Origin: a virus
Lineage: Duplodnaviria > Heunggongvirae > Uroviricota > Caudoviricetes
Direction: 5' to 3' (one strand)
Virus record (IMG/VR): IMGVR_UViG_3300032046_004423
Location: 95,358-109,607 of that record
Length of the DNA: 14,250 bases
The notes under the pieces were generated by a model. That model had not been told where the DNA came from, did no database searches, and saw only the letters and a program-made list of their open reading frames with translations. Within the stretch, counting starts at the first letter, position 1; every line of letters starts with the position of its first letter. The translations under genes and the position numbers were made by a program. Below are positions 1 to 14,250 of this stretch, in pieces.

Positions 1-207
1 TATATGGACACCCTGTATAACATTTGTCACAAACCCTAAACCCATGCGTGCTAGGGTTCTAAGGCTATGCTGTCCCAATCTCATTGGAACTATAGGATAT
101 ACAATAGAGACGCTATGCCCCCTAGCACACAGATGGTTAGCATACTCAAATATAACTCTAATCCCACCATATAACCCAATGCCTGGTGCTATGAATGTTA
201 TTTTCAT
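1..207 (-). CDS. Glycosyltransferase, GT-B fold / family 4-like, N-terminal 69 aa (runs off the window edge; not in ORF track)
   Basis: Manual translation from ATG at 207: MKITFIAPGIGLYGGIRVIFEYANHLCARGHSVSIVYP..., open to position 1. The MKI-x-F...GG-x-RV...AN-x-L-x-x-RGH-x-V pattern is the typical GT4 N-terminus. ATG overlaps the TGA of the upstream ORF (ATGA, 204-207). Confidence 0.85.
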   Translation of the reverse strand, partial: MKITFIAPGIGLYGGIRVIFEYANHLCARGHSVSIVYPIVPMRLGQHSLRTLARMGLGFVTNVIQGVHI

Positions 208-389
208 AGTTTATTAACCTGCTCCTTGAAGTCAGCGAGCATCTGGCTAACATCATTAGTATCCTCAGGATATAGTGCTAGTTCAAGAGTTCCAGTTGAG
301 TATCTTGTTAGGGCTACAAACAATCCTTCTCCAAACTTCATTACTAGGTGACTCCCGCTAACTTTAATCTCTAACTGCCTTTTTGGCAT
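204..389 (-). CDS. Hypothetical protein, 61 aa
   Basis: AGGAGG 7 nt before ATG (inside the radical SAM 3' end); stop coupled to the glycosyltransferase start. Confidence 0.7.
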   Translation of the reverse strand: MPKRQLEIKVSGSHLVMKFGEGLFVALTRYSTGTLELALYPEDTNDVSQMLADFKEQVNKL

Positions 390-1449
390 TCTTACCTCCT
401 ATAAGCATTCGTGGGTGTTTTAGAAAGTATAGTATATAAGGATAGAAGCTAGTCTCAAAGCTCCAGCGAGTACCCCATGCATTTAGGCACCCTTGGCAAT
501 TCCTGACTATTCCTCGAACTCCTACTGCCCTAGGGCTGTGCCAGAGTTCTGTGGGGGAACTTTCTCTAACATTACCCGCTTTAGTATCCCAAAGACTCAG
601 ACAAGGTACAATATCACCATTACACTGCAGCGCACAGAATGTATCCATAGCAAAACAGTGAAATTTGATAGGTTTGCCTGCCAGCCATTTAAGCCATAGT
701 TCACGGAGAATCGGGTACGGTAATGACTCAACAGCTTTAACCATAGAACCATTATTGCTAGCTAAATCCTTGCCTATATTATCGTAGAATGAGGACTGGC
801 TGTACCACTGCACAAGAAGTTCTATCCCCAGACTTTTAGCATATGTCTTGACATCATCCAGATAAGGTAGTGTATAGTTGCTAAGCGTAAAACCAAATAT
901 AGAGGATACCCTTTCATTCCCGTACTTCTTACTCAGAACTATAAGTTTATGAGATAATCCGTCTATCTTTTCAAAATTACCCTTAACGCCCCTTATCAAA
1001 TCATGACCTTCTCCTACTGCATCTAAAGATAATCCAACTCCCAAGTTGATATTATGCTGAATTGCAAACTCAACTGCACTCATCGCTCTATCAGGTAACA
1101 AGCCATTAGTACTTAAGGTTAAGTTAGCATTAGGAAGAGCTTTATGTTCTGCTAGAAGAATCTCATTGAAATCATCCCTGAGGGTAGGTTCACCCCCAGC
1201 ATTTAGTATGCACCTTACATCCCTAAAAAGTGGGTCACTAAGAGCCTCCTCTATTTCCTCAGGAGTTAATTCATTACCAACTGGTTCTTTACGCCATATA
1301 TCACAGTGAATGCAACGGGAGTTACATCTATCAGTAACCCCAAACCACAGCCATCTCGGTCTGAGTGAATAGCCTATAGCTCGCGGGACTAGATTCTTAA
1401 GCCCGTATCCTAAGTCTGTTAAGCCTTGTGTGATATACTTATTCATCAT
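364..1449 (-). CDS. Radical SAM protein with C-terminal SPASM/twitch-like domain
   Basis: CxxxCxxC motif (TDRCNSRCIHCDIW), GGEP and STNG motifs, C-terminal C-x7-C...NGDIVPC...GNV...CQGC Cys cluster. Confidence 0.92.
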   Translation of the reverse strand: MMNKYITQGLTDLGYGLKNLVPRAIGYSLRPRWLWFGVTDRCNSRCIHCDIWRKEPVGNELTPEEIEEALSDPLFRDVRCILNAGGEPTLRDDFNEILLAEHKALPNANLTLSTNGLLPDRAMSAVEFAIQHNINLGVGLSLDAVGEGHDLIRGVKGNFEKIDGLSHKLIVLSKKYGNERVSSIFGFTLSNYTLPYLDDVKTYAKSLGIELLVQWYSQSSFYDNIGKDLASNNGSMVKAVESLPYPILRELWLKWLAGKPIKFHCFAMDTFCALQCNGDIVPCLSLWDTKAGNVRESSPTELWHSPRAVGVRGIVRNCQGCLNAWGTRWSFETSFYPYILYFLKHPRMLIGGKNAKKAVRD

Positions 1450-1453
1450 CCTA

Positions 1454-2014
1454 CTAGTGAACTACTGCCCTTAAAGCTGTAATTGCCTGCTCAATTGTTC
1501 CCAATCTAGATATAACGTAGAACATCATAACCACAGCTACAACACTAGCACCAACAGCTATATACATTAGCATTCTCTCACCCTTACCAACCTTACCTTC
1601 CTCACCTACACCCTTAACTAAGTTAATTAACCACTGAGGGTCAAGTACAGCAGGTAACTCTTTTGATGATAGTGCTCCGGCTGGTGGATTTTGCCAATTA
1701 AGAGGGTCACTCCTTCCTCTCATGACTAGCGAACACCAAACTGTCTGCTGGAAAGATGATAATATCCTAGGCCATCCTATTGGATAGTCTACAAGCTTCA
1801 TTAAGTCATTCTTAAGTACCCACTCATCACTCCCATCCTTAATAAAGTCATCCTTATAAATCTTTAATAACTTAATACTTAGGGGCCTTCCCTTTTCAAT
1901 AATACAGCACAGATGTCTCCCCTTTATCTTTCCTCTTATAGCAAACTGTAGTACTAGAGGAAAAGACATAAATACAAGTATAAGTAAAACTACTGGCATC
2001 ATTACATTGGCCAT
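1454..2014 (-). CDS. Membrane protein, 186 aa, with N- and C-terminal hydrophobic helices
   Basis: GGGAGG 6 nt before ATG; hydrophobic segments VMMPVVLLILVFMSFPLVLQFAI and MLMYIAVGASVVAVVMMFYVI. Confidence 0.75.
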   Translation of the reverse strand: MANVMMPVVLLILVFMSFPLVLQFAIRGKIKGRHLCCIIEKGRPLSIKLLKIYKDDFIKDGSDEWVLKNDLMKLVDYPIGWPRILSSFQQTVWCSLVMRGRSDPLNWQNPPAGALSSKELPAVLDPQWLINLVKGVGEEGKVGKGERMLMYIAVGASVVAVVMMFYVISRLGTIEQAITALRAVVH

Positions 2015-2090
2015 TAAAAACCTCCCTTTTAAATTCCATAACTAAACTCATAGACTAACTCACTTCCTTTATAAACTTCCTAAATGCTAA

Positions 2091-2435
2091 CTATGATAGT
2101 ACCTTCTGGAAGATAGATACGAAGGTCATCACGAGTCCCCATACAAACATAGCCATTAAAGGGGTCCAAATTATCCACTTAACATAAATCCAGCCTCCCT
2201 GTATAAAAGCAAAGTCCCAAATAGCTGCCTTAAATAGTGCTCCAAAGTAGTTTGGAACAAAAGCGATTATATCAAGCATACCCCAAGACTCCTCACTTCC
2301 TACTTGCCTCCAAAGAAGTAAGGTATTAAGCGTACTTTGATGACTTGAACCAATTGTTCCCTGTTCTATAATTAAGCCTAGTATAGTCCCAACTACAAAT
2401 AAGAACACAAAGAAAGCTATATATTTCGGTGGCAT
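2091..2435 (-). CDS. Small integral membrane protein, 114 aa (putative virion membrane protein)
   Basis: AGGAG SD; start overlaps the upstream stop (TAATG); 2-3 hydrophobic helices (YIAFFVFLFVVGTILGLII; WIIWTPLMAMFVWGLVMTFVSIF). Confidence 0.75.
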   Translation of the reverse strand: MPPKYIAFFVFLFVVGTILGLIIEQGTIGSSHQSTLNTLLLWRQVGSEESWGMLDIIAFVPNYFGALFKAAIWDFAFIQGGWIYVKWIIWTPLMAMFVWGLVMTFVSIFQKVLS

Positions 2436-5263
2436 TACATACTCCTTGAGGCAACTAGATATGCACTACTAAATATAGCATAAACTATAGGTATCCACCA
2501 ACCAACACCACCAGTACTAGCCCCCACTGCTAAGCCAATACCAGTAGCTATAACAGCTAATAGAGCACTACCAGTCGCGACTGCTACTCCTACTCCTATC
2601 ATAATAGCCGCAAATATCATTAGAACTTCATATAGTGTATTCGTAGTCCACCCAAGTTCAACAGCTGCAGGCTGAATCAAGTCGAAAGGAAGCCAGCCTA
2701 TAGTAGTAATTTCCTCCTCCTGTTCCCATAAAGTAACATTGCCAGGTAATGGGAGTACAACAGGTAACTCACCCTCTTCAGTTGGTGCTGATATATAAGT
2801 AGTCATACTTTTTAAACCTCCCACTACTATAGTCAGGTTAGAATTTGAACCCCAAGCTATAGTACCATTATTACTACCTACTCTATCAACCAAGGTTGTA
2901 CCACTTATTATCGTATTTGGTTGGAACAGTAATTTTTGCACCCCATTTACAGTAATGCTAGTATAGTTCATATAAGGCATTACATTATTCTCTATCAACT
3001 TCCAGTTAGTAGAGTTAGTAGCAACACTCCAGTTGCCTAGACTAGTACTGCCCCCTTGAGTACCATCTATCCAAATAGAAAGATATCCCCCATGCCCACT
3101 AGCAATTGTACCATTAGCCATTACTTTGATTATATGCTCTCCACCTGAAATCCCTGTAGCAGTAGCATTTATTGTAGTAGCCGTTTCATTACACCCAAAG
3201 TCAAATTCAAGGAGGTCGATGGAACTTGGATATGTAGCAGTATTGTGAAATTTAATCCTTGCTTTAGTCACAGAATATGTCCCCCCCAGACTCTTATCAA
3301 TCCACATACCATCTGTAAAAGTACCATTATAAACATCGTGCCAAGCACTACTATAGTATACATCTAAATCCACAAGGTCTACAAAACCATACGAGTTACT
3401 AGTATAAAATCTCAGCTTACTACAGTTTGTAGCAGTAATAGTTAGATTCAAAAAGCTTCCCCACGAACTCGCAGGGATATCAGGCTCAGCTCCCACTACA
3501 CCGAAAGCATCATCATAAGCATAAGTCTCAAGACCCCATTTACTATCTGCATCTTCATATCCAGTTGGTGAAGTCCAGTTTATAACACCAAGTATTGATG
3601 AAGTTATATTACCAGTACCACTCACATATGTTCTAATAACATTCTGCTTATAACTTAAATTCCCAACAACAGAGGTATTGACATATCCATCCTGCTCAAT
3701 AATAAAGTTATTTGCTAGTCCTAAAGTAGCACTATCTGCAACTGTTACATTACCACCATTACCAGTTATTAAACCAAATGAAGGATTAGCAGGACTATAT
3801 CCTGTCTCAAACCTATACTGCCTCTGCTGATTAGCTATCAAACTAGGAATAAAGACACCAATCTTATCATCAGCTACCATATATAATCCTTCAGTTGTCC
3901 CCTCAAACATCCTGGTATCTAAACAAGTACTACTCAAGTAACCAAAATCTATAGCTTGCGCGGTACCGAAAGGAACCAAAGCTGGAACACCAATTCTATC
4001 AGTAACCGATATATCAATTATGGTTATTTCAGACCTATAGGCCCCAGAACTATATATTACTGCCTCAGTAAGAAGCTGAACAGTAGTTCCATATCCCGTA
4101 CCTGCTGAGTTAATAGCATAAGCCCTAACACGGTAACTCGTATCTGGACTTAAACTAGCTATAACTTTAGTATAAGAACCGTTGCCAAAACTACCGCTAT
4201 CATAAGCTATGCTACTAGAAGTAGTAGGATCCCCCGAGGTACCCTCCATATAGCAGAAACCTCTACTAGTACAATTCTCACCACCAGTATCAGTGATATT
4301 TCCATTACCTGTAGCATAGGTTGTTCCTATACCAGATACCTCCTGAGTAGTAACTGTAGGTATTACTATCCCCGGTGTCTCATAACTTACTATAACTAAA
4401 CCGGAACCACCAGCCATACCAACCTGTAGTTCTCCACCACCACCCCCACCCCCACCTGTATTTACTGTTCCCGCTACTGCTGCAATTGGTCCACCACCAT
4501 CCTTACCTGCTCCTGCTCCCCCACCACCTAGACCACCAGGAGCTACAGCTGTAATTAAATTGTGGGTACTACCTCCACCACCACCAGCATAGTAAACAGA
4601 TGAACCAGAAATCGAACAAGCCGTCCCATTACCTCCCTTACCTCCCCCTGCTGCACCACCATTAGCACCAACTACACTAGCTCCACCTCCACCACCTGCA
4701 CAATGGTAGGTAGCGCCAGAGCCAGCCCCACCATCGTATCCCTGCCTCGGAGAAATATAGTCAGCATCCCCTCCAGCCCCAGATTCTTGCCCTCCACCTC
4801 CACCAGAACCCCCAGGAGATCCTGCATGGTTAATATAGTATCCTCCTCCACCACCCCCGATTGCAGTTAGTATATCAAATACAGAATTACTGCCATTAGT
4901 TCCTTGACCTGAACTTGCACCAGCACCTCCATCCCCAACTGTAACAGTTAATTCCGCTTCAGGTATAACAGTATAAGTCGCATTATAAATAAAACCTCCT
5001 GCACCACCTCCACCACCCTCGCCTGTAGTATCATTACCACCACCACCACCCCCACCTGCTACTACTAAAACTTTTACTGAAGTTACTCCAATAGGTACTG
5101 TCCATTTACCCCCAACAGGAGTAGAGTTAAAAGCTACAATAGTTTCTCCCGAAGCAAAAGTAGAACTGCTAGGAATAGCTAGTAACGTTCCAACTAGCAT
5201 ACCTACTATAAGTAAAGTTGGTAGTAGATACCCTACAGGTCTATTTAGCTTTTTAAACATCAA
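2435..5263 (-). CDS. Large secreted, C-terminally membrane-anchored Gly-rich adhesin/spike-like protein, 942 aa
   Basis: Signal-peptide-like N-terminus (...AIPSSSTFA|SG); Gly-rich domain about aa 42-294 (VKVLVVAGGGGGG...GGSGLVIVSY); FN3-like domain about aa 302-399 (PTVTT...ATGNGNITDTGG...RGFCY...YRVRAYAINSAGTGYG); DUF2341-like stretch (YRSEITI...LDTRM); beta-rich S/T/N region; C-terminal TM helices. GGGGAGG SD. Confidence 0.8.
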   Translation of the reverse strand: MMFKKLNRPVGYLLPTLLIVGMLVGTLLAIPSSSTFASGETIVAFNSTPVGGKWTVPIGVTSVKVLVVAGGGGGGGNDTTGEGGGGGAGGFIYNATYTVIPEAELTVTVGDGGAGASSGQGTNGSNSVFDILTAIGGGGGGYYINHAGSPGGSGGGGGQESGAGGDADYISPRQGYDGGAGSGATYHCAGGGGGASVVGANGGAAGGGKGGNGTACSISGSSVYYAGGGGGSTHNLITAVAPGGLGGGGAGAGKDGGGPIAAVAGTVNTGGGGGGGGELQVGMAGGSGLVIVSYETPGIVIPTVTTQEVSGIGTTYATGNGNITDTGGENCTSRGFCYMEGTSGDPTTSSSIAYDSGSFGNGSYTKVIASLSPDTSYRVRAYAINSAGTGYGTTVQLLTEAVIYSSGAYRSEITIIDISVTDRIGVPALVPFGTAQAIDFGYLSSTCLDTRMFEGTTEGLYMVADDKIGVFIPSLIANQQRQYRFETGYSPANPSFGLITGNGGNVTVADSATLGLANNFIIEQDGYVNTSVVGNLSYKQNVIRTYVSGTGNITSSILGVINWTSPTGYEDADSKWGLETYAYDDAFGVVGAEPDIPASSWGSFLNLTITATNCSKLRFYTSNSYGFVDLVDLDVYYSSAWHDVYNGTFTDGMWIDKSLGGTYSVTKARIKFHNTATYPSSIDLLEFDFGCNETATTINATATGISGGEHIIKVMANGTIASGHGGYLSIWIDGTQGGSTSLGNWSVATNSTNWKLIENNVMPYMNYTSITVNGVQKLLFQPNTIISGTTLVDRVGSNNGTIAWGSNSNLTIVVGGLKSMTTYISAPTEEGELPVVLPLPGNVTLWEQEEEITTIGWLPFDLIQPAAVELGWTTNTLYEVLMIFAAIMIGVGVAVATGSALLAVIATGIGLAVGASTGGVGWWIPIVYAIFSSAYLVASRSM

Positions 5264-6282
5264 CCAAACCTCCCCAGTATGAATGTAACACTAAACATTA
5301 GTACAGCCATAAAAGCAGCAATAAAGGTAATAGTCAAGGATAGTATCCCGATAATATTCCCAACAAATAAGAATGGTATACTTACAGCAATAGCTACTGG
5401 TACCGAGTGAGTAGCTATGAATATCCTACCAGCTAGAATAAAAAATAGGATAGACAAACCAAGCCCCCCTACTACACTACCCATCCCATTCTTTCCAGTA
5501 ACCCATACTCCCAAGCCCTCAAGTGCAGTTGCTAATCTAGCCCCCTCTCTACTTGTCAATGTATCCTGGTAAGTATTATTATATACCGGATCCGTATACT
5601 CAGGGTAAGTAGAAGCTACCTGAAAGATATCTGGGCATATACTATCTAGTCCAGGAATTGCCTCCTTGAACTTTACCATCCCAACAGAATTAAGCTTATC
5701 ACCCGAAGAGAGTAAAGTTATATTTCCCCAAGCATCCTCAAGTGATCCAGCCAGCACAATACACCAGTCAGCTAAATATAGTCTCGTTTCAGAAACAGAA
5801 CCCCCCTCAAGCCAGTTACTAGCTGTTAAGGTTACAGTTCTCATATTAGCACCCTCAGTTAAAGTAGGGAAATACGAGGGATTACCTACAACCCTAACTT
5901 TTAGCTCGTCATCTAACTCATAACCAAAACTAACTACCTGAGCTGCAGTTAGATACACCGAAATAAAGTTATACTGGTAATAATTAAGGGGCATATCAGG
6001 CCCCTTAATAGTATTATTCCAAATGCCAACTAGGAACGTATCCGAAGGATCCTCCCCAGGGTCAACAGTATAATTTAGGTCATACTCAACGACAAACAGC
6101 ATATCGCCACTTTCCCATAGTCCCCTGTAAGCTTTAACAGACTCAATATATATACTGTTAGGATTTCCTATAGTAGCATAAGCTGGTGTAGCTGCAAATA
6201 GTACTACTACCAGAACTACTAAAGGTAGTAGTTTATAGAGCAAATTCCTTACTCTCAAGTTCAACTCCAGACTGTCTAACAT
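5260..6282 (-). CDS. Secreted/membrane protein, 340 aa, with signal peptide and about three C-terminal TM helices
   Basis: KLLPLVVLVVVLFAATPAYA| resembles a signal peptidase I site; C-terminal hydrophobic helices; stop overlaps the start of the 942-aa gene. Exact start uncertain (overlaps the upstream gene by 50 nt). Confidence 0.78.
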   Translation of the reverse strand: MLDSLELNLRVRNLLYKLLPLVVLVVVLFAATPAYATIGNPNSIYIESVKAYRGLWESGDMLFVVEYDLNYTVDPGEDPSDTFLVGIWNNTIKGPDMPLNYYQYNFISVYLTAAQVVSFGYELDDELKVRVVGNPSYFPTLTEGANMRTVTLTASNWLEGGSVSETRLYLADWCIVLAGSLEDAWGNITLLSSGDKLNSVGMVKFKEAIPGLDSICPDIFQVASTYPEYTDPVYNNTYQDTLTSREGARLATALEGLGVWVTGKNGMGSVVGGLGLSILFFILAGRIFIATHSVPVAIAVSIPFLFVGNIIGILSLTITFIAAFMAVLMFSVTFILGRFG

Positions 6283-6556
6283 AACCCCTTCCAGTTAAAG
6301 TATCGAGTGCCCCTCTTATCTGCTCACTTGTTAGACCAGTAGCTACCGGTAAACTATCAAGAGAAGTATAACCCTCAATTACTGCATCATACACAATTCT
6401 CTCCTCAGGGGTCCATCCAGCAGTTAGAATTCTCCTAAACATACTACCATACTGTGTAGGAGTAAGCGACTGTACAAATCCAGGTACTCTCATAAAGTTA
6501 TTTAACTGACGTGGGTCAACTCTCGAGAACTCATCACCTTTAGCAACATACGGCAT
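6233..6556 (-). CDS. Winged-helix protein, paralog 4 (107 aa)
   Basis: AGGAGG SD; C-terminal EERIVYDAVIEGYTSLDSLPVATGLTSEQIRGALDTLTGRGYV, a wHTH-like pattern shared with three other genes in the window. Confidence 0.8.
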   Translation of the reverse strand: MPYVAKGDEFSRVDPRQLNNFMRVPGFVQSLTPTQYGSMFRRILTAGWTPEERIVYDAVIEGYTSLDSLPVATGLTSEQIRGALDTLTGRGYVRQSGVELESKEFAL

Positions 6557-6578
6557 TTTAACTAATTACCTCCTATAT

Positions 6579-7115
6579 TTACATTAACCACTTTCTTTTC
6601 CTTTTCCTTCTCTCTTCTGCGTCTACAGTAGTATCCCCAGTAGTACTAACTAGTCCCTTTTTCTTTAAGTTTTCAATAGCAATATCAATTTGGTCCCTAG
6701 TTAAACCAGTAACCTGCGTCATATCCTCATAAGTATTGTGGCCCTCAATTATTGCATCAAGGACTTTATATTCATCCGTCGCCTTAGATAACCAGCTGCC
6801 ATCCTCCAACTTAATATTTTCACCCCTAAACTCATTGAAACCCTCAATGCCTAGTCTGCTTAACATCTCCTGCTCGTCAGGAGGTAGAGCATTGTACTCT
6901 TCTCCTTTAACAAACTCCTCATTGGGTAGTACAACATTTCCTTTAGCCACCCACTCAGTTTTCCCTCTCTCTTTACCTATATATCCACCCCAACTCTGAG
7001 CTGCCTCAGGACTAATATCCTCCCTAACTGCTGTACTAGTTAGAAAGGTTTCTAATTGCCTCGGATCAATACCTTTTACCACAAACTTCACCTCCTTATC
7101 TTCCTTACTTACCAT
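6579..7115 (-). CDS. Winged-helix protein, paralog 3 (178 aa) with basic C-tail
   Basis: DEYKVLDAIIEGHNTYEDMTQVTGLTRDQIDIAIENLKKKGLV; ends EERRKRKRKWLM; shares the DPRQL motif with the 107-aa neighbour. Confidence 0.8.
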   Translation of the reverse strand: MVSKEDKEVKFVVKGIDPRQLETFLTSTAVREDISPEAAQSWGGYIGKERGKTEWVAKGNVVLPNEEFVKGEEYNALPPDEQEMLSRLGIEGFNEFRGENIKLEDGSWLSKATDEYKVLDAIIEGHNTYEDMTQVTGLTRDQIDIAIENLKKKGLVSTTGDTTVDAEERRKRKRKWLM

Positions 7116-7303
7116 AGTTTAGTCTTCCCTTTCTTTCCAGGTATATAAAGGTGTGCATTAGTAATAAGGGAATCAGGGTGTCTTACTCCTTTAGGTACCA
7201 ACTTCCCAAAAACCTTAAGAACCTTCCCAACGTTCTCTGTAGACTTCCTTCTTCTCTCTTCCCTAACAGTTTTTATATACTCTCTCATCAACTGTTCATC
7301 CAT
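7109..7303 (-). CDS. Small basic hypothetical protein, 64 aa
   Basis: Fits the gene packing (7-nt overlap with the downstream gene, abuts the upstream stop); K/R-rich. Confidence 0.65.
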   Translation of the reverse strand: MDEQLMREYIKTVREERRRKSTENVGKVLKVFGKLVPKGVRHPDSLITNAHLYIPGKKGKTKLW

Positions 7304-7507
7304 CTACTTAACCTCTCTTTCCTCAATAACCAAGCCTTCAGGCAGAATAATAATTGGGTTACCTTGTCTTACAAGTGAGCGCTCAACAACATAACCTCTC
7401 TTCTCCTCAACTATCTTTGCAGAAAAACCTCTTTCAAGAATCTCTCTAGCTTTAGAACCAGCTCCGCTTCTAGACCAGGCGAATTTAACTGGGATAAACT
7501 CAAGCAC
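7304..7507 (-). CDS. Hypothetical protein, 67 aa
   Basis: Same strand, tight packing, purine-rich AGAGTAGATAGG upstream of the start. Confidence 0.6.
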   Translation of the reverse strand: MLEFIPVKFAWSRSGAGSKAREILERGFSAKIVEEKRGYVVERSLVRQGNPIIILPEGLVIEEREVK

Positions 7508-7524
7508 CTATCTACTCTTTCAAC

Positions 7525-7794
7525 TTATAGATCTTCTGGCCTAGTTGGATTATAAATCCAATCAGGTTGACTTTCATACAACTCAGGATAAATTCTAAGC
7601 ATCAGCTTTATAAGATCCTCCTCCTGGCCAGAAAGCATTATTACCTCGTGATCTGGAATATCTATCTTACCTAGCTTCTCTACTAAACTCCTTGCTGCCT
7701 TCTCATATCCTCTAACTGGATGCCCCTTAACAAATTCTCTAAGAATAGGAAGAGCAGCCCTTTTTTCCTCTTTAAATACTGTCCAAAAGGCCAC
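7525..7794 (-). CDS. Hypothetical protein, 89 aa
   Basis: GTG start directly after the stop of a 32-aa basic ORF, GAGG 9 nt upstream. Confidence 0.65.
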   Translation of the reverse strand: MAFWTVFKEEKRAALPILREFVKGHPVRGYEKAARSLVEKLGKIDIPDHEVIMLSGQEEDLIKLMLRIYPELYESQPDWIYNPTRPEDL

Positions 7795-7893
7795 CTATCT
7801 GGACCTCAAGGACCTCAAAATACTTCTATGTTTAGCTTGGGCTCTTCTAGTGCTAGGTATCCTACTAAGTTTACTACGTTGCTTTCTCATCAT
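7795..7893 (-). CDS. Putative 32-aa arginine-rich, protamine-like peptide (not in ORF track)
   Basis: Manual translation MMRKQRSKLSRIPSTRRAQAKHRSILRSLRSR*: 9 R, 3 K, no acidic residues. Fills the gap between two genes; TAG abuts the next GTG; only a weak AGGA SD. Confidence 0.5.
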   Translation of the reverse strand: MMRKQRSKLSRIPSTRRAQAKHRSILRSLRSR

Positions 7894-7906
7894 AATCCTA
7901 ATGCTC

Positions 7907-8182
7907 TCACGGTAGAGTTAGTGTACTCTGCGTTTCCTCCGAAGCAGCACACTTAGCGTGAACTAGTCCCCCCACTCTAGGCTGAAAAATTATATCCCTA
8001 ATAGTAATATCTTTATCACAGATAGGACAGGTCCCAATATACTCCCTACACTTTAAGCAAGTATACTCAGTCCCAAAAATGGCACGCAAAAATCTCTCCT
8101 CAGGAGTACCTCCCTCAACATAACTTGCCCTACTGCACTTAGAGCAAATAGTTCTTATCTTTCCTTTAGGCCAACCTCTCAT
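7907..8182 (-). CDS. Zinc-finger protein, 91 aa (two predicted Zn sites)
   Basis: CSKC...CLKC...CPIC...HAKC; start overlaps the upstream stop (ATGA). Confidence 0.75.
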   Translation of the reverse strand: MRGWPKGKIRTICSKCSRASYVEGGTPEERFLRAIFGTEYTCLKCREYIGTCPICDKDITIRDIIFQPRVGGLVHAKCAASEETQSTLTLP

Positions 8183-8433
8183 ACTTTATGAACTGCCCTT
8201 CTCACTCCTTTATCTAAGGACTTATAACGCCTTATTAACTGAGCTTTTACCATCTGCGTTGCCCTACTAGAATTACTTGTAGGTAACTCAAAAATTTCAG
8301 CCTTTTGACTCAAGTTAGCATCATCCATATAGTGCTGAGCTAGCAACTCAGAAGAAAAAGACCTGCCTCCTATAATGACAGGTCTTAAACTACCATCCTT
8401 TGCCCTAGTATAGTCAACTACCCAGTAGTACAT
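8179..8433 (-). CDS. Hypothetical protein, 84 aa
   Basis: ATG at 8433 overlaps the TGA of the hidden 45-aa ORF (TGATG), so it is preferred to the track's GTG at 8436. Confidence 0.7.
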   Translation of the reverse strand: MYYWVVDYTRAKDGSLRPVIIGGRSFSSELLAQHYMDDANLSQKAEIFELPTSNSSRATQMVKAQLIRRYKSLDKGVRRAVHKV

Positions 8434-8570
8434 CACTTTACTATAACTACTTTACCAGGTTTAGTAGAGTCAATTAGCATCAATATCCTACTACAACGGC
8501 AAAAACCAATGCTTGACCAAAAAGCTACCAAACTACCACAGTCTGGACACTTAAGAATTACAAGACTCAT
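8433..8570 (-). CDS. 45-aa Cys-rich Zn-ribbon-like protein (not in ORF track)
   Basis: Manual translation MSLVILKCPDCGSLVAFWSSIGFCRCSRILMLIDSTKPGKVVIVK*; AGGAGG directly upstream; CPDC...CRC; stop coupled to the next ATG. Confidence 0.75.
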   Translation of the reverse strand: MSLVILKCPDCGSLVAFWSSIGFCRCSRILMLIDSTKPGKVVIVK

Positions 8571-8579
8571 ACCTTCCTC

Positions 8580-11500
8580 CTACTTTACTAGTTTAACTCT
8601 CCTTGAAGTTTGCCTACCCAACTTTATACCCTTTACAGTTGGAGTTCTTAATACCTCCCTAGCCCCATATCTTACTGCTTTTTTACCCGCAAGCTGTATT
8701 TTCTTTTTCCTCATACTTAAAGGCTCAGGCATATTTAGTATCAAACCAGGTACCACCCATTTTGCTCCACTTAATACCTTACCAATACCACCCCCACTAT
8801 AGCCTCCACCCATACCAGGAAATCCTAGAGGAGGTGGGAATGGTAAAGGTAGTCTTGGTAAGCCATAACTAGGTAGGACCGGTTCAGGTTGAGTTATACC
8901 AATTTTAGGTGGAGATATAACAGGAGGTGTAGTCGTAAAGCCAACTACTACTGGAAAAGGTTCTGGAACCACCATAGGCTTAGGTATTACAGGTTCCTCA
9001 GTTAGGGCCTCTGGCACAATAGGAATAAGTAACTCAGATTCAGGCATTAGAGGATGGACTGTTACAGTCCCAGTAATAAGAGGTGTATAAATTCTAGGAA
9101 GAGTTACAACAGGTGTAAAAATTTCAGGTTCATGTTCTGGTTTAGCTACTCCAGGAATAACAAAAGGCTTACTAGGAATCTTTTCAGGCATAATAGGACT
9201 AAAAGGAGTTTTTATCCCAGGCTTAACTCTAGTAGGTATAGTAACTCCTATTCTAGCTGGAATAGTAAGTCTTGGGAGAGTTTTAGTCCAATCCATAGTT
9301 CTAGTTCCAACTCCAAGTTCTCCTCCCAGACCTCCCCAACTATATAAAGGACTACCATATCCTCCTCCTTCTAGAGGATAACTGAACTCCCCACTATACA
9401 GAACATCAGGACCTCTATATAAACCCCCACCCCCTTTTGTAGAACCACCACCAAAGGTCATACCACCTAGCCCAGGCATAGGTCCCCGCTCAAAAGGATA
9501 CCACCATTCTGGGATAGGTGGGCCCGACTTAGGCCCCCCACCTTTTCCATACCATTCCTCAACAGGCCACATAGAAACAGTTCCCTGAGCATAGGCTGTA
9601 GGTCCTTCTATAGGATAACTAGACTTAAGGAATTTATACTCAAGTGGGGATAGAACCTCCCCATATCTAGTAAAAGCAACTTCTTTAGGAGCACCCAACG
9701 ACTCTGTAAGACTAACAGGTTGAGGTCTATAAGCTGCAACAGGTTTAAAAGGAAATAACTCACTAGAAGGCCTATAGATATCACCCGAAAGCTCCTCAGC
9801 AGTAGGTAACTTTATCTCTTCCGTATAACGAGGCTTCTCTCCCTTACTAAGTTTTACCAGCTTTGCCCCGAATCCAGTAACTCTAGTATCACTCCTAAGA
9901 ACAGTACCAATAGTCTCTGAGATTGGTACTATCCTTCCTCCAAGAGGAGTAATAGCTTCCCCATAACTAATCTTTCCTTTTGCTACTCCCAATCCCTCAG
10001 CTACTAACTCAGGACTAACTTTTGCTCCTATTCCTTTACTAGCCCAGAACTTCTCAATTCCTCTTAAACCAACTGCTCTAGGTCCAAAGAGACTTCCTTG
10101 TAGTCCAGGAAGTAAGGTAAATCCTACAGTACCTATCTTATGTCCTATACCTGGCTGCTTCCATGTTAATACACCAGCAGCAGTTACTGGCCCAAAATAA
10201 GGAAATAGTGTAGTAAGAGACTTAGCCCCATACTGGGGATATAACTGTGAGGCAACCGTAGAAGGAGCAAGTATCTGATACATACCCCCTACTAGAAACT
10301 TAGGTACTGTAGGCCACTCCTGCATCTTCTCTAAAGGAGGCATAAGATACCTCTCCGTTCCTTTTCCCAAAGCACCTACTATGCTAGGCTGATACTGCAT
10401 CTCACCCAAAACACTCTCCCTAATACTTGCCATCACTTGTGGGTCATAATCTAAACTAGCCTGGGCTAAAAACTCATCCTTTCCGATATCTAATTCTAAT
10501 CCTTGGGCAGCAGCTTCTCTAGCCTCCCGGTCATATAGAGAAGACGCATCACTCATATACTCCTTATAGCCTTGACTATACTGAGAACTACCCTTATACT
10601 GCTCCCATGCCTTAGCAATATTACTCTCAATAGGTTCCGGTTCAGATAAGGCACCCAGTGCAGTCGCACTACCAATAGTCGCAACTGTAGGGATAGTAAG
10701 TACAGTTGTAGTTGCTTTTACCCCAGTTAAGAATCCAGATAATGGTCCAGCAAACCTCCCAAGACTTGGAGAAATTTCAATAGGTGCCCTTCCCCATTTC
10801 AGGAATGATGATACTGGCCCAAGTGCTTTAACTAAAACTGGAGCACCCATAGCCTCACCAGTACCAAGTGCAAGCCCTCCAGCAAATATCATAGGCTGAA
10901 TAGGAGACTCCTTCCACCATGCCTTAGTCTGTAACATATTGGGACTCGGACTATAACCTCCACCCCAACTACCAGGAGGAGAAATACCCCAAAGAGCATT
11001 TCTTACTTTTTCTAACCAAGTAAATCCAGGTTTAGAACCATAATACTCATCTGCGTGAATCACCGGTAAACCAAACTGACCTGCCTGGGATAAACCAGCA
11101 AGAGAAAAGAGATTAACAGGATGACCTCCAGCTAACTCTATCTGCTTAGTAGGAGCCATAGTTCCAGACCTATATTCTAAGGCTTTATCAACATCCTCCT
11201 GTCTAAAACCAAAACTGACTAACTGAGTTGGGGTTAACTCACTTAATGCTCCAACTAAATTATAACCCCCTCCACTAGTCTTATAAGATTCAATCTTAGC
11301 TTCCTCAGGAGTTACTATCTGCCAACCTCCCTGCGTATTCCTATAAGTAATACCACCTTGGTTAAGATACTCCACACCCCCACTCTCAAAAATTCCCTCA
11401 GGTCCCTTAACCAAATAACCCGTAGTAGGTCCAGTTATAGTAATAGGAGTTTCCCCACCATGTTCCTGGTAGTAACTAAGAAAAGCTTGCTTTTCAGCCT

Positions 11501-11741
11501 CAGTAGGCTCACCAGGTACTACTACAGTAGGAGGTTTATTACTAGTACCTCCACCCAATCCCGAACTAGGAATTACTTGAATCCCATGAGCTTTTGCAAA
11601 TGCAAGAACCTGTGCTGGTCCCCAACCACCACTTGTTACTAGACTACCCCCTCCAGTAACTGGATGGTACTCAATTCCATGGGCTTTTGCAAATGAAACT
11701 ACTTGGGCTTGAGTCCAACCACCACTAGTTACTTGTGCCAT
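8580..11741 (-). CDS. Large 1053-aa low-complexity protein (Gly-rich N-terminus, central hydrophobic segments, Pro-rich region, basic C-tail); putative internal virion protein
   Basis: AGGAGG SD with long (13-nt) spacer; uninterrupted ORF; no catalytic motif recognised. Confidence 0.8.
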   Translation of the reverse strand: MAQVTSGGWTQAQVVSFAKAHGIEYHPVTGGGSLVTSGGWGPAQVLAFAKAHGIQVIPSSGLGGGTSNKPPTVVVPGEPTEAEKQAFLSYYQEHGGETPITITGPTTGYLVKGPEGIFESGGVEYLNQGGITYRNTQGGWQIVTPEEAKIESYKTSGGGYNLVGALSELTPTQLVSFGFRQEDVDKALEYRSGTMAPTKQIELAGGHPVNLFSLAGLSQAGQFGLPVIHADEYYGSKPGFTWLEKVRNALWGISPPGSWGGGYSPSPNMLQTKAWWKESPIQPMIFAGGLALGTGEAMGAPVLVKALGPVSSFLKWGRAPIEISPSLGRFAGPLSGFLTGVKATTTVLTIPTVATIGSATALGALSEPEPIESNIAKAWEQYKGSSQYSQGYKEYMSDASSLYDREAREAAAQGLELDIGKDEFLAQASLDYDPQVMASIRESVLGEMQYQPSIVGALGKGTERYLMPPLEKMQEWPTVPKFLVGGMYQILAPSTVASQLYPQYGAKSLTTLFPYFGPVTAAGVLTWKQPGIGHKIGTVGFTLLPGLQGSLFGPRAVGLRGIEKFWASKGIGAKVSPELVAEGLGVAKGKISYGEAITPLGGRIVPISETIGTVLRSDTRVTGFGAKLVKLSKGEKPRYTEEIKLPTAEELSGDIYRPSSELFPFKPVAAYRPQPVSLTESLGAPKEVAFTRYGEVLSPLEYKFLKSSYPIEGPTAYAQGTVSMWPVEEWYGKGGGPKSGPPIPEWWYPFERGPMPGLGGMTFGGGSTKGGGGLYRGPDVLYSGEFSYPLEGGGYGSPLYSWGGLGGELGVGTRTMDWTKTLPRLTIPARIGVTIPTRVKPGIKTPFSPIMPEKIPSKPFVIPGVAKPEHEPEIFTPVVTLPRIYTPLITGTVTVHPLMPESELLIPIVPEALTEEPVIPKPMVVPEPFPVVVGFTTTPPVISPPKIGITQPEPVLPSYGLPRLPLPFPPPLGFPGMGGGYSGGGIGKVLSGAKWVVPGLILNMPEPLSMRKKKIQLAGKKAVRYGAREVLRTPTVKGIKLGRQTSRRVKLVK
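11568..11732 (-). repeat. Two-copy direct repeat (93-nt period) at the 5' end of the 1053-aa gene
   Basis: VTSGGWTQAQVVSFAKAHGIEYHP (aa 4-27) vs VTSGGWGPAQVLAFAKAHGIQVIP (aa 35-58); DNA shares gcttttgcaaatg and caaccaccact. Confidence 0.9.
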
Positions 11742-11758
11742 TTACGACTATTAACCTC

Positions 11759-12310
11759 CTATTTTAGATATCTAATAAACCCTTTCTTAACTAACTGAGA
11801 AAGTGCTCTTCCTACTTCCTCACCTGTTAAACCAGTAGCTATCTCTAACTGACTAGAATCAGTATATCCATCAACGATTGCTAAATAAACAGCTTTTTCC
11901 TCAGTAGGCATATTAGCTGCAGCCCCTCCCTGAAATGCCCTACTAACATCCTCTTCACCCCACTCATCTCCAGGTTGTAATACTGTTCCTAAGTAACTAC
12001 CTCCCCCAGCTACTGCCCTTTCCTCCTGTGTCATATTTCTCCACTCTTCTCTCCCCGCTATCTGTGTCTGCTCTGTTCTATAAAACGGGCTTGCCTCCAT
12101 CATATATGCTCTATTCGCGCCAGCAACCGCTGCACTCACCTCACAAGGTGATAGTCCAGCTGCTTCTGCTTGACTCTTTGCAGAACTAACTCCACTCTGC
12201 CAGTTCTGATAGTCCTGTTTCGCTGCATTTATACTTTGTTGGGCCTTTGTAGGGTTACTACCCCCAACAGGTCCCCCACCCAAACTAGAAGCAATATTTC
12301 CCCATGCCAT
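11759..12310 (-). CDS. Winged-helix protein, paralog 2 (183 aa), low-complexity N-terminus
   Basis: C-terminal MPTEEKAVYLAIVDGYTDSSQLEIATGLTGEEVGRALSQLVKKGFI. Confidence 0.8.
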   Translation of the reverse strand: MAWGNIASSLGGGPVGGSNPTKAQQSINAAKQDYQNWQSGVSSAKSQAEAAGLSPCEVSAAVAGANRAYMMEASPFYRTEQTQIAGREEWRNMTQEERAVAGGGSYLGTVLQPGDEWGEEDVSRAFQGGAAANMPTEEKAVYLAIVDGYTDSSQLEIATGLTGEEVGRALSQLVKKGFIRYLK

Positions 12311-12314
12311 AATA

Positions 12315-12890
12315 CTACGCCTTTATATAACCTTTACTAAGTAACCAGTGAAAAGCCCTACCTATCTCCTCATTTGTCAATCCTGTAGCTACTCCCAAAC
12401 TATCAGGACTAGTATAACCCTCCTGTATTGCCTGATAAACAGATTTCTCATTAGCAGGCATACCAGAAGGTATACCAACAGGTGTATCAGGCATCCGAGA
12501 TGCCTGACGGTTAGGCATAGTTCTAATCTTTAAATAGTTACCAGCTATTCCTCCTCCTCCCCCAAACTTTGGTAACAAACCACGCATAGACCCAGTTGAG
12601 ATTGCTACCCCTCCAGATATATTCCTAGCTGGTACTAACCTCAGCTTTGCCCCCTCCGACAAACCAGGTATTTTTTTACTACCAGCACTCCACTCATTAC
12701 TGGGCCTTCTTGCCTCTACCTCAGTAGGTTTTTCTGGGTGTGGAAAAGTCTTTACCCAACTAGGATTTTCTCCCCCCGGGCCAACAAAACCCCCACCTCC
12801 TGGTTTAGAATTTGAAGTTGGTGTTTGTGCTCCCAATCCATACCGTGGGTCCATATCATGAGCAAGTACTGCAGAAAGTTTACTTACCAT
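12315..12890 (-). CDS. Winged-helix protein, paralog 1 (191 aa), Gly/Pro-rich N-terminus
   Basis: AGGAG SD; C-terminal MPANEKSVYQAIQEGYTSPDSLGVATGLTNEEIGRAFHWLLSKGYI. Confidence 0.8.
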   Translation of the reverse strand: MVSKLSAVLAHDMDPRYGLGAQTPTSNSKPGGGGFVGPGGENPSWVKTFPHPEKPTEVEARRPSNEWSAGSKKIPGLSEGAKLRLVPARNISGGVAISTGSMRGLLPKFGGGGGIAGNYLKIRTMPNRQASRMPDTPVGIPSGMPANEKSVYQAIQEGYTSPDSLGVATGLTNEEIGRAFHWLLSKGYIKA

Positions 12891-12927
12891 TTCTAGTATC
12901 CTCCTATAACAAAATTTTTAATAGTAG

Positions 12928-12955
12928 AATGGGGAGTATATTTCAACTCCCCATT
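12928..12955 (-). terminator. Stem-loop after the capsid-like gene (terminator or mRNA-stabilising hairpin)
   Basis: Perfect 10-bp inverted repeat AATGGGGAGT (12928-12937) / ACTCCCCATT (12946-12955) with 8-nt loop, 12 nt past the TAA. No clean U-tract follows. Confidence 0.55.
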
Positions 12956-12967
12956 TACTGACTAGTG

Positions 12968-13133
12968 TTAACCCTGGCCTCCTATCCATGCTACTGCCCC
13001 TAATAGGATAACTGCGACGAAAACGTATGGCAGAACACCAACTAGAGCTGCTAAACCAGTAGGACTAGTAATAGCTGCAGTAGTCTGCAGGATGACCGGA
13101 ACCAGACTTACACCTACCACGATGGAAATCATG
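12968..13133 (-). CDS. Exon 2 of an intron-split small hydrophobic protein; putative spindle-shaped-virus-type major capsid protein (not in ORF track)
   Basis: C + ATG ATT TCC...GGT TAA encodes MISIVVGVSLVPVILQTTAAITSPTGLAALVGVLPYVFVAVILLGAVAWIGGQG*: two hydrophobic helices with a polar T/S/P/G linker. It begins right after the predicted intron omega-G. Confidence 0.75.
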
Positions 13134-13322
13134 CAACCTTATCCCAGGTTTTCCTGAGGGTTGGACTTTATCTTCACCCATTACTGGGTGTCCCGTGTAA
13201 AGTCTCTACACTTGCCTGTCTTTCAACTGCTAGCTCGGTATTACCATAAGTATCACTACCCTTAGGCTTCACCGACTTAGCGGGATTTATTACCTCTCAA
13301 TTACTCAAGAGGAGCACCACTT

Positions 13323-14072
13323 CTAGTATAAACCAAAGGCTTCTAGTTTTGCTAGAAACTTAGAACTATCAAGCCCAGTGTGCCTTCTAAGTCCAAGCTC
13401 ACATTCCCGAAGCACCAGGCATCTATAACCAGCCTCCCCATATAGATACATTCTGGCTACTTCCTCCAACTCATCCCTATGCCAGTAATCACCAAAAAGT
13501 TCAATGCAATCCTTTACACCGTCAGTTCTATAGAAATCAGGTACCTTTCCTGCTACTACTAGCTCACCCTCATTGAACTTCCACTTACCTGGACTTACAA
13601 AGTCTAGCAAATCCTTTAGCCAAGATTCGGGATAGTTAGGATGTAAACTACCAGCCCCAGACCTCATTGCAGCTATCTGGCTATTCTTAAACTCTGGATC
13701 TGACCACAGGTTATTATGAACCCTACTTAGCCTTTCCCTATAACCAGGCTGACTCCACATTTCCTTAGCAGTCCTGGAGAAATCCTCTGAGGACCTTGTA
13801 GATGGAACACCAAACTTCGCTTCTGAGATTGCATCTCCCCAAGTTATGTCTCTGCCTGTAAGAGCCTTAGATATAGCCTCATTTCTCTCAGCCGCAAACT
13901 CCTGCCAAGAACCCATAGACTCAAGAACGAGGTCAGAATAGATACTAGCATCTGGGAACATTGCCCGGTACTCAAGGACAGTACCTATTCCATGAGCAGA
14001 CTGTAGATGCGTACCAGTAATCTGTTCATAACTCAGACCACAAAGCCTGCACTCTACTAAGTACTTTCCCAA
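13323..14072 (-). CDS. Intron-encoded putative homing endonuclease, Vsr-like/EDxHD-type PD-(D/E)xK nuclease with N-terminal C2H2 Zn finger
   Basis: TTG start with GGGGG SD; CRLC...HLQSAH...EYRAMFP N-terminus; helical repeats (ISKALTG/ISEAKFG; WSQPGYR/WSDPEFK); C-terminal PNYPE...VPDF...IELFGDYWH...LVLRECE; lies between P1 and the ribozyme core. Confidence 0.82.
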   Translation of the reverse strand: MGKYLVECRLCGLSYEQITGTHLQSAHGIGTVLEYRAMFPDASIYSDLVLESMGSWQEFAAERNEAISKALTGRDITWGDAISEAKFGVPSTRSSEDFSRTAKEMWSQPGYRERLSRVHNNLWSDPEFKNSQIAAMRSGAGSLHPNYPESWLKDLLDFVSPGKWKFNEGELVVAGKVPDFYRTDGVKDCIELFGDYWHRDELEEVARMYLYGEAGYRCLVLRECELGLRRHTGLDSSKFLAKLEAFGLY

Positions 14073-14095
14073 CCATTCCCCCTAGATTGTAACCT

Positions 14096-14106
14096 GTAGC
14101 AGTCAT
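14096..14106 (-). other. Predicted internal guide sequence (IGS) of the intron
   Basis: Minus-strand AUGACUGCUAC is the exact 11-nt complement of the ligated exons GUAGCAGU|CAU. Confidence 0.65.
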
Positions 14107-14127
14107 TAAAAGTCGATGCCGATAAGT

Positions 14128-14141
14128 ACTGCTACTAACAC
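14128..14141 (-). CDS. Predicted exon 1 of the capsid-like gene (GTG TTA GTA GCA GT)
   Basis: GGGAGG SD 9 nt upstream of GTG; joins exon 2 in frame (GT|C = Val). The alternative junction GGC AT|C at 14116 is also in frame. Confidence 0.55.
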
Positions 14142-14159
14142 ATGCTAAAACCTCCCTTT

Positions 14160-14215
14160 AACATTACCGAGTAATATAACTAGTACTCTTCCTATGCAAC
14201 AAGTATAACATAGCA
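14160..14215 (-). promoter_or_regulatory. Candidate promoter region upstream of the capsid-like gene
   Basis: AT-rich non-coding region. Contains an extended -10-like TGTTATACT (14202-14210), a TTATAT box near 14174-14179 that could equally be an archaeal TATA box, and a short palindrome ATTAC-CGA-GTAAT (14163-14175). Confidence 0.3.
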
Positions 14216-14250
14216 AATCATTCAGTGCCATATTCATATTATTCACATCT

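Follow-up and report, generated by a model that had tools for sequence, protein, structure and literature searches.

Comparison with described systems

The spindle-shaped viruses of the Fuselloviridae (SSV1 and SSV19) and the Halspiviridae (His1) have genomes of approximately 15–25 kb, archaeal hosts and archaeal promoters. Spindle-shaped viruses have been described as exclusively archaeal (PMC12042106). Those of ANME-1 (Itzamnaviridae and Tepeuviridae) have structural and enzymatic arms, Que genes and an RNA- or protein-primed PolB, and the largest genome in the paper describing them is 72.6 kb (PMC9894754). An exception to the archaea-only lineage was hinted at by IME1, elements of 21–28 kb in Dehalococcoides and Dehalogenimonas that encode a pI-like ATPase together with proteins resembling SSV1 VP1 and were proposed to be filamentous (bioRxiv 10.64898/2026.09.15.751708). 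Here, we analyse a 14,250-nt stretch of DNA (the window), which is the terminal part (bases 95,358–109,607) of one contig 109,607 bp long, an IMG/VR virus record, and which carries a predicted VP1-like capsid gene interrupted by a group I intron. We consider that the window is probably the particle-building module of a large (>110 kb) non-tailed double-stranded DNA virus whose host is a wall-less bacterium, most likely of the Dehalococcoidia, and which uses the mechanism proposed below. The virus family is real and probably undescribed so far; a literature search of incomplete coverage found neither this large family nor its capsid introns described. SSV1-like capsids were already known from small Dehalococcoides elements (IME1), and what is new is a larger PolA-replicating family with capsid introns at six or seven sites.

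The window virus resembles IME1 in its VP1-like capsid protein (PHROG 11172), pI-like ATPase, membrane-anchored adhesion proteins and lack of head–tail genes, and also in its host if this is a member of the Dehalococcoidia, as we favour. In contrast to the 21–28 kb of IME1, with a tRNA-integrating tyrosine recombinase and a primase-helicase, the window virus exceeds 110 kb, lacks a match to PF00589 in its contig and encodes a UDG–PolA fusion, a pPolB-like protein, a ligase and a Que/DpdA gene cluster. This distinction follows the published description of IME1. The IME1 groups HOG00 and HOG04 and their counterparts here match PHROG 11172 and Zot-like families. With the Fuselloviridae and Halspiviridae the virus shares two hydrophobic capsid helices, homology to SSV19 VP1 and glycosylated surface proteins, but it is several-fold larger and has sigma70 promoters, PolA and a capsid protein without an N-terminal propeptide. 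The small circular genome and tyrosine integrase of the Fuselloviridae were not found (109.6-kb contig, no PF00589 match); of the traits of the Halspiviridae and Thaspiviridae, a pPolB-like gene is present with degenerate motifs A and B, and no terminal repeats occur in the incomplete contig. The original prediction of a fusellovirus/His1-like virus is therefore not supported, given the genome size, the PolA replicase and the sigma70 promoters, while its more general claim of a non-tailed virus with a capsid protein related in sequence to fusellovirus VP1 is supported. The ANME-1 viruses share the structural and enzymatic arms and the Que genes with the window virus and differ from it in their PolB, size and hosts. 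The Asgard viruses WyrdV1 and Muninn, the hosts of which are archaea, have a related ATPase.

The virus family and its genome

The contig is linear by its record, with a GC content of 40.7% and a CheckV completeness of ∼82%; it is incomplete, and neither tRNAs nor terminal repeats were found in its 109.6 kb. All long open reading frames (ORFs) of the window lie on the minus strand with tight spacing, and all features below are on this strand. The gene order is capsid exon 2, winged-helix and membrane proteins, a 942-residue protein, a radical SAM/SPASM protein and a GT4 glycosyltransferase, of which the window holds the 5′ end. Models for terminase (PF03237), portal (PF04860) and HK97 capsid (PF05065) proteins had no match in the contig (one model each, on an ∼82% complete genome). 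A packed one-strand cluster without head–tail genes, as noted originally, is thus confirmed, and the search of the whole contig extends this to the flanks. The suggestion that it might be a provirus finds no support, as there is no match to the PF00589 tyrosine integrase in this contig or in an 87.8-kb relative and no host genes flank the virus within 109.6 kb.

The 87.8-kb contig has 37 genes in common with that of the window, largely in the same order, and contigs 113 and 119 kb in length carry near homologues of the capsid protein. The family is a coherent set of large viruses rather than a chromosomal locus. A cell-surface (pilin or S-layer) locus on a chromosome or plasmid would agree with the exported glycoproteins, the glycosyltransferases and the ComEC-like gene, but not with 109.6 kb of mostly small ORFs that include a PolA, a ligase, helicases, a recombinase, a nuclease and a DNA-modification cluster, nor with the lack of tRNAs and of a recognizable housekeeping set, nor with a capsid protein and an ATPase that match viruses only; we regard such a locus as extremely improbable. 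The capsid gene is near a contig end in many long contigs, among them that of the window and loci L006, L007, L008, L011, L012 and L154, which may reflect the genome end or an assembly break.

The capsid gene and protein

The capsid gene is split into exon 1 (14116–14141; 26 nt, with a GTG start and its last base, U, inside Ile9) and exon 2 (12968–13133), the latter corresponding to an ORF of 54 residues (12968–13132). Intronless homologues carry nine extra N-terminal residues, and exon 1 equals their N-terminus. Joining the exons by the predicted splice gives a 192-nt frame for a hydrophobic two-helix protein of 63 residues, 61 of which are identical to those of the intronless homologue P0003. 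A first splice reading (exon 1 end in the 14065 region, 'MVGKVL') was rejected once the intronless homologues had revealed the true N-terminus. The gene is preceded by a Shine–Dalgarno sequence, GGGAGG (14151–14156), which is kept in relatives, and by an extended −10 promoter for the capsid operon, TG-n-TATACT (14202–14210), at the −10-like box that had been noticed originally.

A profile built from 57 capsid sequences had a sole match among 177,635 PDB sequences, namely 7XDI_A, the VP1 protein of SSV19 (E = 2.5e-4). PHROG 11172, the family that includes SSV1 VP1, was matched weakly by 51 of the 57 members (best E = 1.6e-4), and the Atlas leads for the protein were His1_capsid and VP1_VP3. At this level of sequence similarity (E = 2.5e-4) the capsid protein is related in sequence to the VP1 of fuselloviruses such as SSV19. 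The AlphaFold model is a two-helix hairpin (helices 2–29 and 33–60; pLDDT 85.7) and, together with the SSV19 match, bears out the tiny two-helix capsid-like gene of the original prediction. The model aligns with 7XDI_A (Z score of 6.6, r.m.s.d. of 3.1 for 63 aligned residues) at rank 32 amid generic hairpins. Foldseek gave no significant match to this model in the PDB or BFVD, and VIA and Atlas searches returned generic hairpins; structure searches cannot separate the capsid protein from other hairpins. A tblastn search of INPHARED phages with the capsid protein gave no match.

Independent support for the spindle-virus capsid lineage comes from a Zot-like ATPase encoded 8 kb beyond the window (contig 86704–87372; Zot E = 1e-4). 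Its sole matches in 50,697 phage records were to WyrdV1 and Muninn, with E values of 7e-6 and 5e-7, and it had no match in plasmids.

As in the Fuselloviridae and Halspiviridae, capsid paralogues can occur in tandem pairs, which were found in 15 of 96 relative loci. Many proteins of 100–300 residues (P0528–P0671) start with the capsid hairpin and then extend; these are possible minor capsid proteins or read-through products of intron-split genes.

Group I introns in the capsid gene

The exons are separated by a 982-nt group I intron (13134–14115) that ends in G, contains an in-frame stop at intron nucleotides 8–10 and matches RF00028 with 52.3 bits (above the Rfam cut-off; E = 4.7e-11). Since the internal guide sequence (13313–13324) pairs with the end of exon 1, with a U·G pair at the splice site, and with the start of the intron to form P1, the nuclease gene lies in loop L1. 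The duplex of the guide sequence is predicted at −12.5 kcal/mol, the intron is preceded by U in the exon and the predicted splice restores the reading frame. In an alignment of eight related introns made without fitting to the structure, 18 of 37 pairs changed on both sides (0 of 500 shuffles; slid controls also far below), 91.5% of cells are paired and the core P3–P8 is present with its guanosine site in P7. The score and this covariation bear out the group I intron that had been proposed in the capsid gene. Its core presumably resembles that of IC3 tRNA introns.

The same intron occurs at the same site without a nuclease in L107. In other relatives, related introns are found at Val5, at Gly8 and at three or four C-terminal capsid positions, those of L147 and L179 probably having one common site by reading of the sequence. 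Every one starts after U, ends in G and gives a full capsid protein on predicted splicing, and most exceed the RF00028 cut-off. Among ∼91 non-redundant capsid genes there are at least eight different intron alleles, which occupy six or seven sites, a lower bound that stems from a scan of some of the loci. Phage group I introns (of the I-Bth0305I type, and the one in a capsid gene of Cluster J mycobacteriophages; PMC3706429) share the group I core, the U·G pair, the terminal G and the Vsr fold, whereas the window intron encodes a nuclease lacking the first D of its motif and sits in a spindle-type capsid gene of ∼190 nt, which introns have entered at six or seven sites across the family. The literature search, of incomplete coverage, turned up no paper on a group I intron in an archaeal virus.

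The same-site introns of the window and L107 both contain, near an in-frame stop, a stretch complementary to exon 1 (window 14096–14136; L107:130–185) that could compete with P1, in which case splicing may require exon 1 to be translated. Taken by itself, the hairpin formed by exon 1 and the start of the intron does not reach significance (z = −1.6). A second, weak RF00028 match elsewhere in the contig (80085–80230, L114; 19.7 bits, E = 5e-4) is a possible further intron.

The intron-encoded nuclease

The intron encodes an endonuclease of 249 residues (13323–14072) with an N-terminal Cys/His motif and a C-terminal Vsr/I-Bth0305I-like domain (profile matches to 3R3P with E = 3e-9 and Vsr with E = 4e-5; DUF559 in 18 of 28 homologues). 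The original prediction had assigned it to the EDxHD type; the fold agrees, but the motif in the subfamily of the window is E-L-F-G-D-Y-W-H, without the first D. Among the loci compared, its nearest relative (L183; 39% identity over 242 residues) is free-standing and adjoins an intronless capsid gene on the upstream side, as would be expected if the intron had captured a nuclease that targets capsid genes. Free-standing members of the family lie beside intronless capsid genes at L183:510–1233 and L020:1129–2004, and a truncated member lies elsewhere in the contig of the window (5579–5827). Eight alleles spread over six or seven sites of a gene of 190 nt, together with a nuclease family found both in an intron and free-standing beside the capsid gene, make this a compact natural system for the study of homing and nuclease capture.

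Expression signals, glycan genes and host

The motif TGnTATA[AC]T occurs in 19 of 68 non-redundant capsid upstream regions (mean of 1.3 and maximum of 4 in shuffles) and −35/−10 pairs in 13 of 68 (1.9 expected), some of them TTGACA-17-TATAAT. The archaeal TATA motif is not enriched in these regions (TTTAWATA in 1 of 68, 2.3 expected). A promoter scan of the window alone was at chance level (35 versus 29) and genome-wide enrichment is weak, so that enrichment is clear at the capsid promoters only. Ribosome sites are of the AGGAGG type, with GGAGG before 32% of ORFs versus 2% in the background and GGTGA before 1 of 188. The UDG–PolA protein is closest to Bacillus phage enzymes, and RF00028 had no matches in archaeal sequence in the study of Nawrocki et al. 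(PMC6125680). Because of the promoters, ribosome sites, polymerase and intron class taken together, the host is very likely to be a bacterium; the archaeal host entertained originally is disfavoured by the promoters, an indirect test of the host. In the window (∼14228–14242) and in many relatives, a conserved TAATATGA-n-ATAT motif, lying immediately upstream of the −35 element, is a candidate regulator site.

The sequon enrichment noted in the original prediction holds for the 942-residue protein (25 versus 9.2 expected) and also for an 881-residue protein beyond the window (40 versus 15.8 expected), and is limited to exported proteins. An acidic residue at position −2, which Campylobacter PglB needs, is found at 0 of 25 and 1 of 40 of these sequons, respectively, and a relaxed, archaeal-type oligosaccharyltransferase would therefore be needed. 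The adjacent radical SAM and GT4 genes, the taxonomy of which had been put forward as a route to the host, are 76–78% identical to those of the cellular locus L200 and 53–59% identical to those of L041 and L050. The GT4 protein of L050 is MGD0355263.1 [Dehalococcoidia bacterium], and the syntenic L041 carries an archaeo_STT3 oligosaccharyltransferase. The viral GT4 nests with MGD0355263.1 in a clade of 31 sequences (SH-aLRT 100), far from a Methanobacterium homologue. By sequence, the pair derives from a cellular glycan locus, one related to Dehalococcoidia-type loci. Dehalococcoides mccartyi has an S-layer and lacks peptidoglycan (PMC13721041); our literature search, incomplete as noted, found no paper on AglB in Dehalococcoidia. 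A bacterium with an archaeal-type AglB and no peptidoglycan fits the sequons, so these no longer conflict with the bacterial signals. Of the two hosts that had been offered for this conflict, an archaeon and a wall-less or S-layer bacterium such as Dehalococcoidia, the second is the one favoured, and the host class is likely to be Dehalococcoidia. Dehalococcoidia are major members of subsurface and bioremediation communities, and few of their viruses are known.

The host could instead be another wall-less or S-layer bacterium, with the glycan genes having been gained indirectly by a spindle-type virus. Glycosyltransferases move readily between genomes, near homologues are mostly without a taxon and the ComEC-like gene points to none, but the gene pair, the AglB-type enzyme, the IME1 precedent and the absence of recognizable lysis genes among the ORFs examined converge on Dehalococcoidia, and we judge this alternative to be unlikely.

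Several observations weigh against a spindle-type virus of Dehalococcoidia. Approximately 18% of the genome may be missing, the capsid homology is a modest E-value on a short hydrophobic protein and IME1 fractions showed filaments rather than spindles. The host link is indirect, with no tie through a spacer or an integrated copy. Behind the Dehalococcoidia assignment are a single captured gene pair and one protein that carries a taxon name, at 57–58% identity; the cellular locus nearest to the pair is L200 (76–78%) and not that of MGD0355263.1; and the GT4 tree was made by a quick method without bootstrap. Spindle viruses of Bathyarchaeia are known, and a search of 185,579 species genomes gave a sole match, a contig in a Bathyarchaeia metagenome-assembled genome (MAG; CAZZFH010000015.1, L008/L031).

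This last contig would suit a different reading, in which a spindle-shaped virus of an archaeon (of Bathyarchaeia, for instance) has a capsid gene split by an intron. Such a virus would also fit the archaeal viruses that are the best matches of the capsid protein and ATPase, the enrichment of relaxed sequons, the presence of Que genes in ANME-1 spindle viruses and an Atlas cluster, 83% archaeal, near a 180-residue surface protein. However, the contig holds viral-type genes only and no host genes, starts with TGTTATAAT and has tetranucleotide correlations of 0.11–0.26 with the other contigs of the MAG, versus 0.73–0.88 among those others, and no convincing capsid match was found in 250 other Bathyarchaeia genomes. 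The Bathyarchaeia placement was set aside as a probable misbin on these grounds; a virus contig binned in this way could mislead host assignment. With the sigma70 promoters, the unenriched TATA motif and the PolA replicase also against it, an archaeal host is improbable.

Proposed mechanism and particle shape

For a virus of Dehalococcoidia, we propose the following mechanism. Computational tools supply the genes present, the spliced product, the homology of the capsid protein, the type of promoter and the ancestry of the genes, whereas the shape of the particle, its exit route, the roles of the proteins, the class of the host and the target of the nuclease are our inferences. A strong sigma70 promoter would drive the capsid operon. 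The capsid mRNA would splice itself, the guide pairing with exon 1 across the loop that contains the nuclease gene, and excision would give the 63-residue hydrophobic hairpin; translation of unspliced RNA would end after 11 residues. If archaeal spindle viruses are a guide by analogy, the hairpins may enter the membrane and form helical strands that slide and that surround the DNA, with the winged-helix proteins as its coat. The Zot/pI-like ATPase might feed in the DNA, with membrane proteins capping the tips, and the particle might exit by extrusion without lysis. Exported proteins would be N-glycosylated by an archaeal-type AglB of the host, and the captured radical SAM and GT4 enzymes would modify that glycan. 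The nuclease would carry the intron into intronless capsid genes of co-infecting relatives.

A spindle-shaped particle is suggested by this analogy and is unproven. The same virus in the same type of bacterial host might form a filament or rod, as proposed for IME1. Electron microscopy of IME1 fractions showed no spindles but abundant filaments, which coincided with the elements that encode VP1-like capsids, although the genomes were not physically tied to the filaments (bioRxiv 10.64898/2026.09.15.751708). The ATPase is Zot/pI-like, and a capsid fold of this type builds tubes as well as lemons (PMC10589707). Against a filament, a genome of more than 110 kb would presumably need a very long one, and the nearest matches of both the ATPase and the capsid protein are spindle viruses. 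We see a filament or rod as a possible but less probable outcome.

More tentatively, and with slightly less than even confidence, we suggest a widespread, undescribed family of 90–120 kb that makes spindle-shaped, glycosylated virions of archaeal type in wall-less bacteria (Dehalococcoidia), with phage-type replication, the largest genomes of the lineage and recurrent capsid introns. The family goes beyond the exception that IME1 hinted at and suggests that the capsid lineage has, with large genomes, become established among bacteria. It would imply that the host range of the virion architecture is set by envelope type (S-layer, no peptidoglycan, AglB) rather than by domain, which bears on the age of the lineage.

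Other genes of the window and the contig

After the capsid gene come proteins of 191 (12315–12890) and 183 residues (11759–12310) which, with one of 178 residues (6579–7115; PF24409, E = 8e-5) and one of 107 residues conserved in relatives (6233–6556), have a winged helix that is C-terminal, common to the four (pairwise E = 1e-5 to 1e-15) and found nowhere else in the contig. A low-complexity protein of 1053 residues (8580–11741) has a Pro-rich region and a basic C-terminus but no membrane helix; a large ORF of similar build follows the capsid gene in relatives, and it is a candidate internal virion protein. Six small ORFs (45, 85, 91, 89, 67 and 64 residues; 7109–8570) include two that are Cys-rich, and those of 85 and 64 residues are conserved in relatives.

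Of all neighbours of the capsid gene, the protein of 340 residues (5260–6282; one N-terminal and three C-terminal membrane helices) is conserved the most (34 loci). It begins a block whose order is kept across relatives, followed by the exported, membrane-anchored 942-residue protein (2435–5263; Gly-rich and variable domains, 25 sequons; PF21722, E = 1e-27), a two-helix membrane protein of 114 residues (2091–2435) and a conserved membrane protein of 186 residues with a helix at each end (1454–2014). Because the N- and C-terminal anchors of the 942-residue protein are kept among relatives while its internal domains are swapped, as expected for a receptor-binding protein, it is likely to be a receptor-binding or tail-end protein. 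The membrane proteins, large adhesin and DNA-binding proteins of the original prediction thus exist as genes, with 'adhesin' and 'DNA-binding' remaining putative roles. The radical SAM/SPASM protein (364–1449; 76% identical to that of L200 and 53–54% to those of L050 and L041) is followed by an inserted 61-residue ORF (204–389) and by the 5′ end of the GT4 gene (1–207; PF00534; contig 94488–95564).

Outside the window, the contig encodes the UDG–PolA fusion, an ATP-dependent ligase, an SNF2 helicase, Rad52-like and YqaJ-like proteins, and further glycosyltransferases and methyltransferases. The pPolB-like protein (contig 68604–70274; L004:11604–13274), with its degenerate motifs A and B, lies beside the intact-looking PolA, is 52% conserved in the 87.8-kb relative and may serve DNA modification or end replication. 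Contig positions 34882–61583 (L002–L004) hold two QueC, FolE-, QueF- and QueD-like ORFs, an intein-bearing QueE and TGT/DpdA-like genes, a probable 7-deazaguanine DNA-modification cluster judging by these sequences. A ComEC-like lipoprotein with a metallo-β-lactamase fold (contig 78285–79220; L005:2285–3220), whose DNA is ∼80% identical to a cellular gene (L197), has been captured recently and might allow the host to be identified; its cellular homologues, at 79–87% identity, point to no taxon. Further ORFs of the contig are TROVE/Ro60-like by eye (49406–50707), RNA-ligase-like (7385–8521) and SPFH/Band 7 (62379–64373), and the Band 7 gene adjoins the capsid gene in relatives too.

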